In this document: piece by piece, positions 27,001-33,000 of the stretch
Layout: every line of letters begins with the position of its first letter
Numbering within the stretch: the first letter of the stretch is position 1
NCBI RefSeq assembly: GCF_013167455.1
Contig: NZ_CP038328.1
Length of the DNA stretch: 64,000 nt
Reading direction: 5' to 3' (one strand)
Source of the DNA: Escherichia coli O157:H7
GTDB taxonomy: Bacteria > Pseudomonadota > Gammaproteobacteria > Enterobacterales > Enterobacteriaceae
Program-made: the position numbers

Positions 27001-30000
27001 GAGATCTTCAGCGTACGTTTCATTTCGCACCTCGCTGAATATACTCTTTGGTGAAATGAAACTCCGGCAGCGATTCCAGACGAACATCGCTGTACTCCAT
27101 CACTGAATAGTTATTGCCGTGACGAACATCGGTAACGGTTATTTTCATGGGTCGCGTTTTCCCCAACACCGGCTGGAAATCCTGATACAACACTTCTTTT
27201 ATTAACTGGTCATCCTGCGAATAATAGGCCGCCTTCCACGGGCGATTATCACCGTCTTTTTCAACGTAATAGATAACCTTCGGCCAGGTGATATCCGCCG
27301 ATTTACGCACCAGCGCCAGCTTGTAACACTGCTTTTCAGCACACGTGACTTCCCCCATCAGGGTCGAGTCATAGGCATATTCAAAGTTAGTGACAATGAC
27401 ATCGCCATTAGAGATTTGCCCAATTAATCTTTGTTGCCGTGAAATAGGCATAGGACGTCGCAGTTCCGGCGTGTAAAACCATAAATCGTACCAGTCGGAA
27501 AGCATGATTTTTCCTTTATCTCGCGGCGGATAAATAAAACGCACCAGCGAGCGTGCATCCGCTTTTTCATTACCCTGCGGTTTCATAAAGCGCATGGAAA
27601 TATCGAGGACCTGTTTATTCTCTGGCTGGGTTGCGCCCGCTTTATATTCCGTTACCGTCAGCGTGTAACGAAACGGTTTATTCGGCGAACGAATTTCGTC
27701 AGCGCGACGAATTATCTCCAGCGCCTTATTATCTGTGCTCGCCGCCTGAACGCACGACGTAGCGAGCCACAGGCAAGCAAACCACTTGCCGTAAAAAGCC
27801 ATATTCATAATTAGCCCTATGAGAATTTAAATGCGTCAGAAATATTCAGCCGGGAAGCACGTAAAGCCGGTAACACAGAGGCACCTGTTGCTGTCAAAAT
27901 AGGTAATACCACCGTCACCCAAATCAATTCCGGGTTACTGGTTTTTATAAAGGCGGTATAGCCGATGGTTTGTCCCGGCGATGGCGGCATCGCAATACCA
28001 TAAAGATTAATAATCCAGGCTAACACGCCCCCCACCAGCAGGCTGCCGACTGCGCCAATCACACCAATAAAAATGCCTTCTGTCAGAAACAAGCGCGTGA
28101 CGTGAAGCGGCTTCAGGCCTATGGCACGCAGAGTGGTAATTTCACGGGTGCGCTCAACAATGTTCATTGCCATCGAGTTGCCGATCATGAAGATGACAAT
28201 CAGCGCAACAATCAGCTTGATGAAGAAATAGATCCCCGATAGCAACCCTTCAACCTGTTGATAAAAGAGTGAAACATCACGCCAGTCTTTGACCACCAGC
28301 GGCAAATGATTGCGTTCGATAAATTGACGCAGCTTTGCGCTAAACGCCGCGGTGTCATCCTCTTTAAGCAGAATAAGCACTTTGCTGACGCCATCCGTAC
28401 CCATCATGCGCTGCGCGGTGTCCAGCGGGATCTTCATCGCGACATCGTCATAATCTTTAATGCCTGACTCAAAAATGCCACGCATTTTTAGCGACAATGC
28501 GCCCTGCCCGCCCGCCGTGTTGACCACCATCACATCCAGCCAGTCGTCATATTTCGCATTCAACGTTTTCGCCAGACCGCTGCCCAGGGTGATTTCATCA
28601 CCTTTTACCCGGGAAAGATCGCTCCCCGCGATAATCTTATCGAACGAACCCAGCTTTAAAGCGGGTAACGGCTCGACCCCCAGCGCGGAGAAATAGCTGG
28701 AGGTTTCGCTCTCGTAATGTGAAATTACGCCAGTAAACTCCAGTTGCCCGGAGAGCGTGGAAATATCCGCCGCCAGCGTCGGGTCCGACAAAATAGCTTT
28801 CTTTAACGCCGCATAATCGGCAATCAGGCTCTTATTTTTATTCGACGTTTCAAAATAGTGCTGATTGTAAATTTGTACATGACCAATATTGGTACGAATC
28901 GTCTGCTCTTTCAGGATCCAGAAAGAGTAATCAATAAATCCGCCATATAAAAAAATTGCCACGCCACCCAATACAATAGCGGTTATGGTAGAAAAAGAGC
29001 GACGCTTGTGGCGAAAGAGATTCAAAAATGCAAATTTGACATCTCGTGAATAAAACAGAAGCTGATAAAACACAAAAAACAGAATCAGCAGCAGAACGCA
29101 ATTAACAGCTAAAATTTCCCCGGACATTTACTCACCTTTCATCAGCGGCAGCAGTACCTGGGTTAACTCTTCACTATCCCATTCTGGTACAACATTAAAA
29201 TCCTGCGTCAGCGACTGCGCAAGCGCGGCGTTTTGCCCTTTAATTTGCGCCAACAACGCATTCGCGCGGGTGGTGTCCTTGCAGTGACGTAATGCGCGAT
29301 AACGCATCGCCAGAATATGGTCGCGGATCGTTGTCGTCCATATCGCCGGGTCAGCCAGCATGTGTTCGGTGTCTTTGACTGTCACCACGCAACGCCCTGA
29401 GTCTGCGGGTAAATAGGCATCTACGCGGGCGCGTAAATACCGTACGCGTTGATTTTTCTCCTGCAAATCCACCGCTTCATCCAGCCAGAAAAAGCCGCTT
29501 TTGGCGTATTCTGAGGCATGGATAAAATCGTTTGTTGCCGCATAACCGTCCGCTTGACGCAGTAAGCCATAGGCGTAAAAAACCAGCGCCACCACATTGT
29601 GCCTGGCTTCATACTCTTTCTTTAACGCCTCGGTCAGCGTCGCCAGCGCGGCAGGCTGCGCCGGGAGCCCCTGTTGCAGAACCTGGTTAACAGCGTCGGG
29701 TGTTGCCGCGTAAATCTTCGGAGCCACAAACGCCGCGTACAAAAAGACGCCGATGAGCAAAAATCCTTTATGCATCTGAGTCATGAATCAATACTCCATC
29801 CTGAATTTCAACCACTCGCCGTGCCCGCGCTTTTAATTCGCTGGAGTGCGTGGAAATAACAAATGTGGTGCCGGTCTGCTGATTAATCGTCAACAACAGG
29901 TCCAAAATAGCCTCGCCGGTTGCCAGGTCTAAATTTCCCGTCGGTTCATCGGCAATGACCACCATCGGTTCGTGGGCCAGTGCCCTGGCGATGGCGACAC

Positions 30001-33000
30001 GCTGTTGTTGACCGCCCGATAGTTGCCCAGGTTTACGATCGCCAAAACCGCTTAATCCAACACTATCGAGATAATGCAGCGTCCGTTCAGTGGCTTCTTT
30101 TTTACTGAACTGACCATTAAGCACCAGTGGGAAATAAACGTTATCGAAAACATTTAATACCGGCATAAGGTTAAAAAACTGAAAAATAAAACCCAAATGT
30201 TTTCCACGAATCACAGCCAACTGCTCTTCTGGCAGTTGGTTCAGTAATTTATTTAAAAATATCACCGTTCCGCTGGTCGGTTTATCAATACCCGAGAGAA
30301 TATTCAACAGAGTACTTTTACCACTGCCTGACGGCCCACACAGTGCGAGAAATTCGCCTTTATTGATATCAAGATTAATGCTTTTAAGCGCATCAACCTT
30401 TCCTGCCCCAGCGCCATAACACTTATAAATATTGCTAAGCGAAATAGCGGGCAACGATTTAATAGTAGATTGCATACGACTGTCGTTATCCTTCAAGGTA
30501 TTCAAGGTCAAAGTAGTGATAACCAAACTGTTTATCGGCAATGACCGTACGCATTTTTCCACCGGGCTGAATATGACGGGTTAAATAATCCATACTCAAC
30601 GCGGGCGTCAGACAACCGCTTTCACCGTAATGGGCCACCAGGTCGATAACGCCAGCAGCAGGCCGGGACGGCATTTGTTGCCGTTCGCTGAAGGCCATGA
30701 CATCAATATCCGTAGCATGCTGTGGCGCAGTGCCGGAATGATATTCCCCGCATTGCAGCCTGATGGCGCTCTCACGCTGGCTGAGAATAAAACAACCCAC
30801 TCGTTCAACAGATAAATTCACCTCATCAGCACGACGGGGAAATAAACGCTTAGGCGGTTTACCCACATCTTCTTCAGAGAATACCAGCACCGGAATTGCC
30901 CGATAGGCAGCACAAATCACCACGTTATCGAATACATCCCAGGCGAGATAATCCTGCGCCATACGCAGCGCCTGAACGAATGCCTGTTTTTCGCCGCGAA
31001 TCTTGCAAGTCGGTTCCGTTATCGAAAACTTCTTAAGTAAATTCTTGGGAAGCGTATCAATAGTGGCGATATGCAGCGCACTGGAAATTTTTTCAAACGA
31101 ACCGGATTCGCCCCAGGAATCGGCATAAATAAATGCCGTGCGCGATTTCATTAACTTCATGCGTTCTTTAGTCGGCATTTGTTGTAATGCAGAATCGGTC
31201 ACCTGCTCCATCGCCTCAAGGTAAGGCATATATTGTGGATTACGGATCCGTTCTGGTGCATAAATATCGTTCTCCACGCCAAAGCGCTTCAGTCCCCAGC
31301 CATTAGCACGGGTGCCGTATAATCCCCTTTCGTACATATGTGCTTCCCAGGCGTTGAGCCAGGTCGGCTGATAAAAATAAAAAATGTCGTCCGGTTCCGT
31401 AAGCGCCCAGGAAGACAGGTAGATACTCTTTTCCGTCATTTCGCGCGCCCCGCTTGCATATTTGTCATGACAACGCCAATAACTGAACCATCGACACCCA
31501 CACCAACCTTCAGCAAATGGCGTTTGCTATGGTTTGTCACGCTGCCGTCCGTAAGTACCAGCGAAGCCATGCTGTCGATAATGACGTCGTTGCCAACAGG
31601 TGCGATCAGTTGATGATGCGTCAACGAATGGTGGCCAATGATCAGATCGACAACACCAGATCCGGTTGCGGTATAGCCGATCTGCCCTTTATAGGCGAGA
31701 ACGGGGATCTGTCGCTCCCCTGCGAACATGGCGATGGCTTTGGCCTCCGCGTTATCGCTCACTGCCGAACCGTTGCCGTGTGGAAGAATGGCTGCAAGAT
31801 CATCCAGCGCAATTTCAGCCTGCTTCATCGCGGCCTGCATGACCTTGTGCACGTTAGTGCTAAGCCAGGAGGCATCGTTGCTGCGGCCCGCGCTGATTTG
31901 GGTGTAAGTCGTTTGCACCCTTACGCCCTCACTTTGTTGACGCGCCCGGCGGTGATGAGCGCTTTCCAGTAGGAGCGCGCTAAAACCTTCTGCGAACGCC
32001 ACACCTTTACTGTTTTCACCAAACGGCTGCACTTGTTCGCTGTCCAGCATCGATTGCGTTTCCAGGAACCAGATGTCCTGGGTTTTAATTTTCGAACAGT
32101 TCAGCACAATCGCGAGATCAATCCCGCCCTGCTCAATGCCCTGCGTCGCCAGATGCACCGCAGTCAGTGACGAGTTACTGGTGCAGTTCATGTTAGGCGG
32201 CAAATACTGCAAGCGATATTTGCGCGCAAGATGGCTTGAAATCGTGTCCTGCGACATCTTTGAGGCATGCAGATTTGTGATGGATTGCGTTAAGTTGATA
32301 TCTTCTACATCGTTGTAATTATAGAAAGATTTGTAATCCAGCCCGTCGATACGCGGCCCAATACCGGTCAGATAAACGCGAACGTTGCGCCCGGCCAGGC
32401 AATGCTTATCCAGCATTGCCTGTTCCAGGGCTTCGTCGATCAACTGAGACAGCAGGTCCAATGCGCTATCGTCCACCTGTTTCAACGTCGCCACTGACGG
32501 ATTACCCTTAAACCCGCATTTAATGGCTTCCTCGTTGGAGGTAAACCAGGGTGTACGCGCAACGCGTTTCCCCTGTTTCAGATTGTCAATTAACTGCGAA
32601 CAGTCTTCGGCATACGGCATCCACACGCTGTAACCCGAAATAATAGCGGCATTGTCCACAGTCTTATCCCTTAATGACGAACGCGTAGTAGTTGCCGCCT
32701 TCCGTTGCGCCAACAAGCAGGACATGGTTCAGCGCAAGTTTCATCGACTGGCGTACAAAATTCACACGCTCATCAAAGAATTCCACCGTATTTGGAATCG
32801 CAGGTACTGCCTGCTTCTTAATGCAGTCAGTAATCACGGCGAGGTTAAGCAAACCAGCGGCAGAGGCGACAAAACCAAAGCAAGCGTTATAGTTCACTAC
32901 CGGCACCGCCGGGTTTTGCGCGGCGAAGGTGTTGTAAATCGCGTCAATTTCGATACGAGAATGGTCATCGCTACCGTTGCTGGTACCACATACCAAATCA

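Follow-up and report, generated by a model that had tools for sequence, protein, structure and literature searches.

Two conserved proteins of the Escherichia coli O157:H7 O-island 47 lipid/polyketide module: a putative chain-length-factor-like ketosynthase partner and a candidate periplasmic accessory of an ABC exporter

The window analysed here, a stretch of 64,000 nucleotides from Escherichia coli O157:H7 (contig NZ_CP038328.1), corresponds to O-island 47 (z1528-z1556), as assigned from the syntenic RefSeq gene order, and our subject is two of its uncharacterised genes, here called X and Y. Both lie in a lipid/polyketide module of 17 genes that is one conserved operon, and they belong to different sub-modules of it, X beside an atypical ketosynthase (KS), KS2, and Y within an ATP-binding cassette (ABC) exporter. 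The reading that we favour, at a probability of roughly 60%, is a joint one, in which X would be a non-catalytic partner of KS2 resembling a chain-length factor (CLF) and Y a periplasmic accessory of the exporter. The genes on which the argument turns are the following.

30486..31439, minus strand: X, 317 amino acids (aa); predicted thiolase fold, CLF-like; nucleophile and both His gone; motif R148-G-E150-K151
29128..29784, minus strand: Y, 218 aa; signal peptide and predicted helical repeat resembling the tetratricopeptide repeat (TPR); between the ABC ATPase and permease genes
31436..32659, minus strand: KS2, atypical FabF-type ketosynthase, 407 aa (RefSeq start); PF00109 and PF02801
32664..35222, minus strand: KS-CLF fusion, 852 aa; two PF00109/PF02801 pairs; fabF model 453 bits
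29768..30475, minus strand: LolD-like ABC ATPase, 235 aa; PF00005 at 1.3e-35; TIGR02211 (LolD) 227.7 bits
27817..29127, minus strand: MacB/LolCE-type (FtsX) permease with a periplasmic domain at about residues 44-268; PF02687 (FtsX) and PF12704 (MacB_PCD); lolCE 92.9 bits

Both open reading frames (ORFs) were confirmed in the sequence on the minus strand, and the junctions described in the first-pass annotation hold as well. The TGA stop of KS2 and the ATG start of X share the tetranucleotide ATGA (...GCGAAATGACGG...), and Y does lie between the ATPase and permease genes, its start overlapping the 3' end of the ATPase gene by 17 nucleotides and its TAA stop directly followed by the permease ATG. 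The ATPase gene itself begins at ATG 30475, 10 nucleotides past the X stop. Two starts from a mechanical ORF list were discarded: GTG 30562 for the ATPase, which overlaps X, is an artefact, with RefSeq (235 aa) and the homologues supporting ATG 30475, and ATG 32725 for KS2, which overlaps the 852-aa gene, gave way to ATG 32659 on the same two grounds. The first-pass annotation had further proposed that X and Y are translationally coupled to KS and ABC genes. Both are indeed held in the operon by translational coupling, but X is tied to KS2 and not to the ABC genes, because it still follows KS2 in distant clusters that have no ABC genes.

Conservation across orthologous clusters is clear, with X and Y keeping their exact positions in Acinetobacter, Neisseria, Utexia, Aeromonas and Klebsiella. 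For X, 131 homologues (47-100% identity) were found, and an alignment of 59 of these sequences has a mean column identity of 59% and 33 invariant columns; the figures for Y are 190 homologues and, over 62 aligned sequences, 26 invariant columns. Given these homologues, invariant columns and kept positions, X and Y are real genes and not chance ORFs. Neither matched Pfam-A or NCBIfam at E<=1, apart from a 12-bit chance match for Y, and phmmer against the PDB returned nothing for either, in agreement with the initial report of no recognisable motif. At the level of structure the picture is partly different, as common domains do emerge, a thiolase fold in X and a generic TPR-like repeat in Y. X is not an unknown kind of protein, since its common fold appears with structure prediction and with a wider-family profile. 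X and Y are real parts of the pathway, and neither is a categorically new kind of protein.

X and the ketosynthase KS2

An AlphaFold2 model of X, built on the 59-sequence alignment, has a mean predicted local distance difference test score (pLDDT) of 85.7 and a predicted template-modelling score (pTM) of 0.88. Compared with the PDB by Foldseek, it gave 818 matches at E<1e-3, and all 50 of the 50 listed belong to the thiolase superfamily, including StlD, ChlB3, MxnB, DpsC, OleA, FabH, KAS III, PqsBC (5dwz), AntDE and the FASN KS (E~1e-10, template-modelling score 0.5-0.59, identity 8-13%). Among the matches listed, the fold is closest to KAS III/FabH-like condensing enzymes and acyltransferases; at the corresponding positions of X, neither a nucleophile nor a His of the Cys(Ser)-His-Asn(Asp) triad of that group is conserved. 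The second thiolase half is short in the model, at about residues 231-317.

Sequence comparison led to the same superfamily by way of distant relatives. X alone had no sequence match in Pfam, NCBIfam or the PDB, nor did a 59-sequence X profile (A1) match the PDB, and an exhaustive profile search of 1.84 billion representatives found 56 relatives, which makes the X family a small one. A distant member of the family, P0292, scores above the PF00109 cut-off (23.7 vs 20.8 bits), and a hidden Markov model (HMM) of the KS2 family picks up another X relative, P0286, at E=1.4e-6. The best PDB sequence match of a 28-sequence profile of the wide X family (A3) was chain 6smo_C, at E=1.3e-3 and colinear over about 190 residues. 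This chain is AntE, because its aligned sequence carries the peptides QPGDFSEGAAFLVLEER and INEFSNTNQII, both reported for that protein (PMC6638757). Alignment of A1 with the KS and CLF halves of the cluster's own 852-aa protein by hhalign gave noise only. A further hhalign comparison of A1, with a provisional E. coli FabH sequence, produced an insignificant, off-register local match placing C176 opposite FabH Cys112, and was rejected because it conflicts with the order of secondary structure and with the three alignments described below.

Those three alignments (hhalign of A1 with KS2, hhalign of A3 with KS2, and hmmsearch with the KS2 HMM) agree in register. They set G149-E150-K151 of X opposite C-T-S of KS2, the Ser of which corresponds to catalytic Cys162 in the intact KS, so that Lys151 (Arg in most relatives) stands at the nucleophile position in a register good to about one residue. 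An assignment of Glu150 to that position, drawn from secondary structure alone, was replaced on the strength of these alignments. No Cys or Ser occurs at X residues 149-152, and there is no His at either KS His position in any of the three alignments. The R-G-E-K/R-N motif is conserved family-wide, and in the wide family no Cys is conserved, none of the cysteines of X is kept, and no conserved Cys, Ser or Thr could serve as nucleophile. X likewise has no Gln at the Cys position, the feature by which canonical CLFs of aromatic polyketide synthases (PKSs) support decarboxylative priming. With Lys or Arg at the nucleophile, no triad His and no conserved Cys, X has lost the KS catalytic apparatus.

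The genetic linkage of X to KS2 is strict. X lies directly 3' of KS2 in all 11 loci compared, namely the window and 10 others: Acinetobacter equi, Neisseria sp., Utexia, Aeromonas veronii and Klebsiella pasteurii (L002-L006), two divergent loci with ABC genes (L007 and L008), and three distant ones (L009, L012 and L013). The distant three have no ABC genes on the sequenced stretch, and a second ketoreductase (KR) follows X there instead. A KS2-type and an X-type domain are also fused in two natural proteins (784 and 779 aa); one of the two shares 27% identity with KS2 in its N-terminal part (E=6e-40) and occupies the KS2 plus X position in its cluster. The operon moreover encodes a natural KS-CLF fusion of its own, the 852-aa protein, whose N-terminal half has an intact Cys-His-His triad and whose C-terminal half has no catalytic His and replaces the Cys by Glu, with Gln in A. 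equi, Phe in L007 and Val in L008 at that site. Together, the fold, the loss of catalytic residues, the adjacency to KS2, the fusions and this KS-CLF precedent within the operon argue for X as a CLF-like, non-catalytic partner of KS2. X had been called cytoplasmic at the outset, and its predicted ketosynthase-like fold and its pairing with KS2 are consistent with that location.

Under this proposal, X would heterodimerise with KS2 as a chain-length factor (KS-beta) does with its KS, and would bring to the complex one dimer half and a portion of the acyl-binding tunnel, not chemistry. Two KS/partner pairs would then be encoded in the operon, one fused in the 852-aa KS-CLF protein and one formed by KS2 and X.

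Among known systems, two non-canonical CLFs from Gram-negative bacteria, AntE and ApeC, appear to come closest to X. AntE belongs to the anthraquinone type II PKS of Photorhabdus, as one half of the AntD-AntE heterodimer (6SMO/6SMP), and resembles X in its thiolase fold, in the replacement of the catalytic Cys, in the missing canonical Gln and in being encoded directly after its KS, as well as being the best PDB match of the X-family profile. It is described as a CLF that co-purifies with the KS AntD, has Asp at the Cys/Gln position, 'lacks hallmark and gatekeeper residues' and has diverged in its C-terminal third (PMC6638757). AntE forms a stable heterodimer with its KS despite missing the CLF hallmark residues. 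X and AntE differ in length (317 aa for X vs 371 aa), in the Lys/Arg that X carries at the nucleophile after a conserved Glu, and in the missing PF00109 match of X; KS2 has Ser/His/Tyr where the other KS has Cys/His/His, and the X pathway is reducing (KR and dehydratase, DH) whereas that of AntDE is aromatic.

Aryl-polyene clusters export their product by an MMPL/RND pump, in contrast to the ABC transporter of O-island 47. The aryl-polyene KS-CLF pair ApeO-ApeC (6QSP and an Acinetobacter baumannii structure) comes, like X, from a highly reducing, Gram-negative, type II PKS-like system with two KS systems, and aryl-polyene clusters share with O-island 47 an ApeI-like dehydratase, a FabG-like KR and a LolA-like export protein. 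ApeC, like X, is a reduced CLF with a short second half; mainly its first thiolase half is kept and the second is 'almost lost' (PMC8358021). A Pfam scan detected no sequence similarity of X to the ApeC-type family. In O-island 47 the elongating KS-CLF is one fused 852-aa protein, X accompanies a second, Ser-type KS, and there is no aryl starter machinery. The proposed arrangement also recalls heterodimeric thiolase-fold enzymes in which one subunit is dead, such as the condensing enzyme PqsBC with its PqsB. PqsBC is among the fold matches of X and joins an inert thiolase-fold subunit to an active one, although it consists of two FabH-type subunits whereas KS2 is FabF-type. Of six CLF features compared, X shares the fold, the loss of catalytic residues and the linkage to its KS; its sequence homology is weak and shows through the distant relatives. 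X would be a new, very diverged CLF-like variant.

KS2 itself departs from the standard pattern. Its nucleophile column holds Ser (motif C-T-S-N-S) in every O-island-47-type cluster and Cys in the distant relatives L009, P0291 and L013, and in KS2 and all these relatives the first catalytic His is kept and the second is always Tyr. A FabF-type protein with Ser/Cys-His-Tyr is unusual, and KS2 may catalyse acyl transfer in place of condensation.

An alternative that we consider unlikely gives X a catalytic activity of its own, at a new active site formed on the thiolase fold by the invariant Glu150, Lys151 and Arg148, with binding to KS2 optional; X could then be, for example, a decarboxylase, a cyclase, or an acyl-transfer or chain-release enzyme acting on a chain bound to the acyl carrier protein (ACP). 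In its favour, the whole family conserves the R-G-E-K/R-N motif, which falls precisely on the nucleophile elbow, many of the 33 invariant columns are charged, and the top fold matches include the non-condensing thiolase-fold acyltransferases ChlB3, CerJ, DpsC and MucABC. Moreover, the module has no recognisable thioesterase or release enzyme by Pfam, NCBIfam or RefSeq annotation. An enzymatic X is, however, difficult to reconcile with a wide family that conserves no Cys, Ser or Thr nucleophile and no triad His; in addition, its best sequence relative is a CLF, and the fusion to KS2 and the strict adjacency favour a subunit role.

A related proposal, which we hold doubtful, keeps X catalytically dead and gives the novelty to the pair, with KS2 and X together forming a new Ser-His-Tyr thiolase-fold enzyme for acyl transfer or chain release in which X is the obligate partner, and with the module representing a new kind of system. 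If that were so, the module would build an unusual lipid and carry it to the cell surface, or load it onto the TpsA exoprotein, in enterohaemorrhagic E. coli (EHEC) and other Proteobacteria. Such a module would combine TpsA/TpsB, a GcvT-containing, reducing, type II PKS-like core, YcdU, a MacB/Lol-type exporter equipped with Y, a LolA-like protein and an outer-membrane protein (OMP).

That X binds ATP is suggested only by the product name 'ATP-binding protein', which NCBI gives to most family members, and is effectively refuted by the lack of a Walker A motif (G/AxxxxGK[ST]) and of any Pfam or NCBIfam nucleotide-binding domain and by the thiolase-like fold; the label looks like an annotation error, probably taken over from the neighbouring ABC ATPase.

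Y and the ABC exporter

The description of Y as secreted fits its sequence. The protein begins with MTQMHKGFLLIGVFLYAAFVAPKIYA up to the predicted cleavage site, followed by ATPD, and 60 of 61 full-length family members combine a basic n-region with a hydrophobic core and an AxA-like site; there is no other hydrophobic segment. All 62 close homologues in the alignment have cysteines at the positions of Cys132 and Cys168, as would be expected of a periplasmic disulfide, and a bond between the two probably stabilises Y. The model is all-alpha, with stacked antiparallel helical hairpins arranged as a solenoid, and the most conserved part comprises the central helices and loop at residues ~86-132. 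The window protein has no TPR or Sel1 profile match; among the 62 homologues, sub-threshold matches to TPR_14 occur in 18 (best 7e-4) and to TPR_19 in 16 (best 9e-5). A profile search returned 200 proteins, and all 120 of the 120 listed look like orthologues. On this predicted fold, Y is a new small family of TPR-like proteins.

The presence of Y follows the exporter genes. Y occurs in 8 of the 8 loci with the ABC pair, in each case encoded between the two members of that pair, and the more divergent copies in L007 and L008 were confirmed as family members by hhalign (99.1% and 99.7%, respectively). It is absent from the distant loci L012 and L013, both of which reach past the X-KR junction and have no ABC pair there; L009 was too short to score. 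In the divergent cluster L008 (metagenomic contig ERR6436386_12188), X is 32% identical and the ATPase-Y-permease trio and TpsA are kept, with no LolA-like, 462-aa (OMP) or TpsB genes; the L007 contig has no Tps genes. Because Y tracks the ABC pair, we place it in the export sub-module.

The transporter is of the MacB/LolCDE (FtsX-permease) type, Lol-like but not Lol: the ATPase scores 227.7 bits with the LolD model against a cut-off of 307.75, the permease 92.9 bits with lolCE against 362.45, and only the broader LolA_like PF17131 passes its threshold. Transporters of the MacB/LolCDE type act through periplasmic domains with periplasmic partners such as LolA, MacA and EnvC. Because transporters of this type use such partners, Y is proposed to be a periplasmic partner of the permease. 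By analogy with these systems, Y would be exported to the periplasm, fold there as a TPR-like solenoid and serve as a protein-protein accessory of the exporter encoded by its two flanking genes, docking on the periplasmic domain of the permease and helping to pass a hydrophobic product to the next carrier, here the LolA-like protein. Both the binding partner and the hand-over function are suggested by this analogy.

Y could alternatively be a periplasmic carrier or chaperone whose concave groove binds the hydrophobic product, the TpsA exoprotein or the 462-aa outer-membrane protein, an idea that we find tentative at best. TPR grooves do bind extended ligands, residues ~86-132 are the best conserved, the envelope TPR proteins PilW/PilF and BamD serve outer-membrane assembly, and the module encodes TpsA/TpsB and an OMP-like protein. 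The distribution of Y points elsewhere, in that it is kept in L008, which is without the OMP, LolA-like and TpsB genes, and in L007, with no Tps genes on the contig, and in that its presence tracks the ABC pair only, to both genes of which it is translationally coupled.

Far less probable is that Y replaces a MacA/HlyD-type membrane-fusion protein (MFP), bridging the ABC transporter to an outer-membrane channel. The gene does occupy the position usual for adaptors and the cluster has no MFP gene, but Y is all-helical with a mature length of ~190 residues, the model and the Pfam scan reveal no lipoyl, beta-barrel or long coiled-coil alpha-hairpin domain and no HlyD-family match, and L008 is without the OMP gene. 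The co-occurrence pattern and the fold thus make both the chaperone and the adaptor roles less likely than that of an exporter accessory. The first-pass annotation noted positions usual for pathway enzymes or periplasmic adaptors, and position does hint at a pathway enzyme for X and a periplasmic transporter accessory for Y; Y is not an adaptor of the membrane-fusion type.

Compared with known envelope proteins, Y shows no significant sequence relation to PilW/PilF, BamD, the TPR domain of BepA, LapB, LolA, MacA or EnvC. It also differs from the envelope TPR scaffolds and from the partners of type VII ABC transporters in being neither a lipoprotein nor membrane-anchored after cleavage.

Weighing the joint reading

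Several observations weigh against the joint proposal of a CLF-like X and an exporter-associated Y. On the side of X, the protein itself has no significant sequence match, the putative CLF link being made through a profile of distant relatives at E~1e-3, and the hhalign alignments behind that link are of low probability (17% or less). The KS2-X heterodimer and the non-catalytic nature of X are what we infer from genes, fold and alignments. The invariant charged residues (R52, R93, D107, E116, K146, E150, R180, E212 and R213) exceed what a passive scaffold needs, which leaves room for a catalytic or ACP-docking role, and the Ser/His/Tyr residues of KS2 mean that the KS2-X pair may not condense at all. 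On the side of Y, all Foldseek E-values are >=0.12 and the TPR-like fold is generic, and the L007 homologue has His at position 132, so that the disulfide is not universal. Finally, we know of no TPR protein that serves a MacB/Lol-type transporter, and literature searches gave none; nor, to our knowledge, is any known partner of a type VII ABC transporter (LolA for LolCDE, MacA for MacB, EnvC for FtsEX) a TPR protein.

If X is the partner of the second ketosynthase and Y a part of the exporter, the parts list of the module would be complete. The module would then consist of two KS/partner pairs, KR, DH, ACP, AcpS, FabD, a GcvT-like protein, an ABC exporter with Y, a LolA-like protein and an OMP, and reconstitution of the pathway would call for co-expression of KS2 with X and of the ABC pair with Y. 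Y would in that case be the first TPR-type partner of a MacB/Lol-type transporter. For annotation, Pfam and NCBIfam miss the whole CLF-like X family, and NCBI mislabels its members as 'ATP-binding protein'.

The wider module and its surroundings

The remaining genes of the module, from YcdU at its 3' end to TpsA at its head, are given below; for those from the GcvT-like protein to the phosphopantetheinyl transferase (PPTase), the basis is RefSeq annotation and Pfam labels in syntenic loci.

23697..24683, minus strand: YcdU (RefSeq name), polytopic membrane protein, last gene of the module
24680..25624, minus strand: FabD-like malonyl-CoA:ACP transacylase; PF00698; TIGR00128 178.6 bits
25635..27023, minus strand: 462-aa signal-peptide protein, presumed outer-membrane component; by synteny, always after the LolA_like gene
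27020..27808, minus strand: LolA_like periplasmic protein; PF17131, 6.7e-36 (124 bits)
35296-36456, minus strand: GcvT-like aminomethyltransferase
36492-36773, minus strand: ACP
36795-37343, minus strand: FabZ/ApeI-like dehydratase
37347-38108, minus strand: short-chain dehydrogenase/reductase (SDR) ketoreductase
38122-38490, minus strand: AcpS-type PPTase
38506-40125, minus strand: TpsB, two-partner secretion; head of the module; conserved in L002-L006
40214-44026, minus strand: TpsA, two-partner secretion; head of the module; conserved in L002-L006

In the syntenic region of the RefSeq strain TR01, the order runs from pgaABC, dgcT, an EAL protein, a winged-helix regulator, an SDR and a fimbrial operon to TpsA, TpsB, AcpS, the SDR-type KR, the FabZ-like DH, ACP, the GcvT-family protein, the 852-aa KS protein and a beta-ketoacyl synthase. 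There follow a 'hypothetical protein' (X), the ABC ATPase, a second 'hypothetical protein' (Y), the ABC permease and an outer-membrane lipoprotein-sorting (LolA-like) protein, and finally the hypothetical 462-aa protein, FabD, YcdU, an integrase and a urease-bearing island. A core of FabD, AcpS, KR, DH, ACP, GcvT-like protein, KS-CLF, KS2 and X is kept in both distant loci that are fully readable, and the ABC/Y exporter, the LolA-like and 462-aa proteins and the TpsA/TpsB pair are additions to this core in some lineages. The GcvT-family protein (aminomethyltransferase, folate-binding) is kept in every related cluster readable in full. The 462-aa protein had no Pfam, NCBIfam or PDB match.

The 2001 genome paper on strain EDL933 reportedly presented O-island 47 as a possible 'polyketide or fatty-acid' virulence island. 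Our literature search found nothing on the chemistry of the cluster and no reported product, and a review of O-island 47 covers its regulator GrvA only, not chemistry (PMC8565820).

The TpsB/TpsA pair lies directly upstream of acpS, with a gap of 15 nucleotides, and accompanies the lipid cluster in Acinetobacter, Neisseria, Utexia, Aeromonas and Klebsiella; in the distant loci L012 and L013 there is no such pair on the stretch sequenced. This co-conservation suggests a functional link between a secreted protein resembling filamentous haemagglutinin and the lipid pathway.

At the other end of the module, a YcdU-sized gene with no Pfam match follows FabD in most loci (8 of the 9 with sequence reaching that point); L003 and L005 have no YcdU-sized gene directly 3' of FabD. 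Because this arrangement is found in most loci, including the distant L012 and L013, YcdU may be a core component of the pathway. In E. coli K-12, ymdE and ycdU are adjacent uncharacterised genes, and ymdE has been described as a pseudogene with acetyltransferase-like domains (PMC4951805). The K-12 ymdE-ycdU pair looks like a 3' remnant of an O-island 47-type operon.

The 2.6 kb from 29000 to 31600, which include X and Y, are 100% identical to many E. coli O157:H7 chromosomes and are present in 382 of 5426 complete E. coli genomes. In NZ_CP038412.1 (O157:H7 strain 493/89) this region is split into two matching pieces, and the annotation there includes an IS30-family transposase, which indicates that the X/ABC region is disrupted by an insertion sequence (IS) in at least one strain.

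To the left of the module, positions ~1-23330 form a separate island bounded by an integrase (22128-23330). In the syntenic RefSeq record this island carries IS elements, traT, a phosphoethanolamine transferase gene and ureD/A/B/C, together with a gene annotated 'TOTE conflict system archaeo-eukaryotic primase domain-containing protein', which is probably the window ORF at 12789-15173 on the minus strand. Coordinates in this left island are ~1.3 kb apart between the window and strain TR01, so that the strains differ here by an insertion or deletion.

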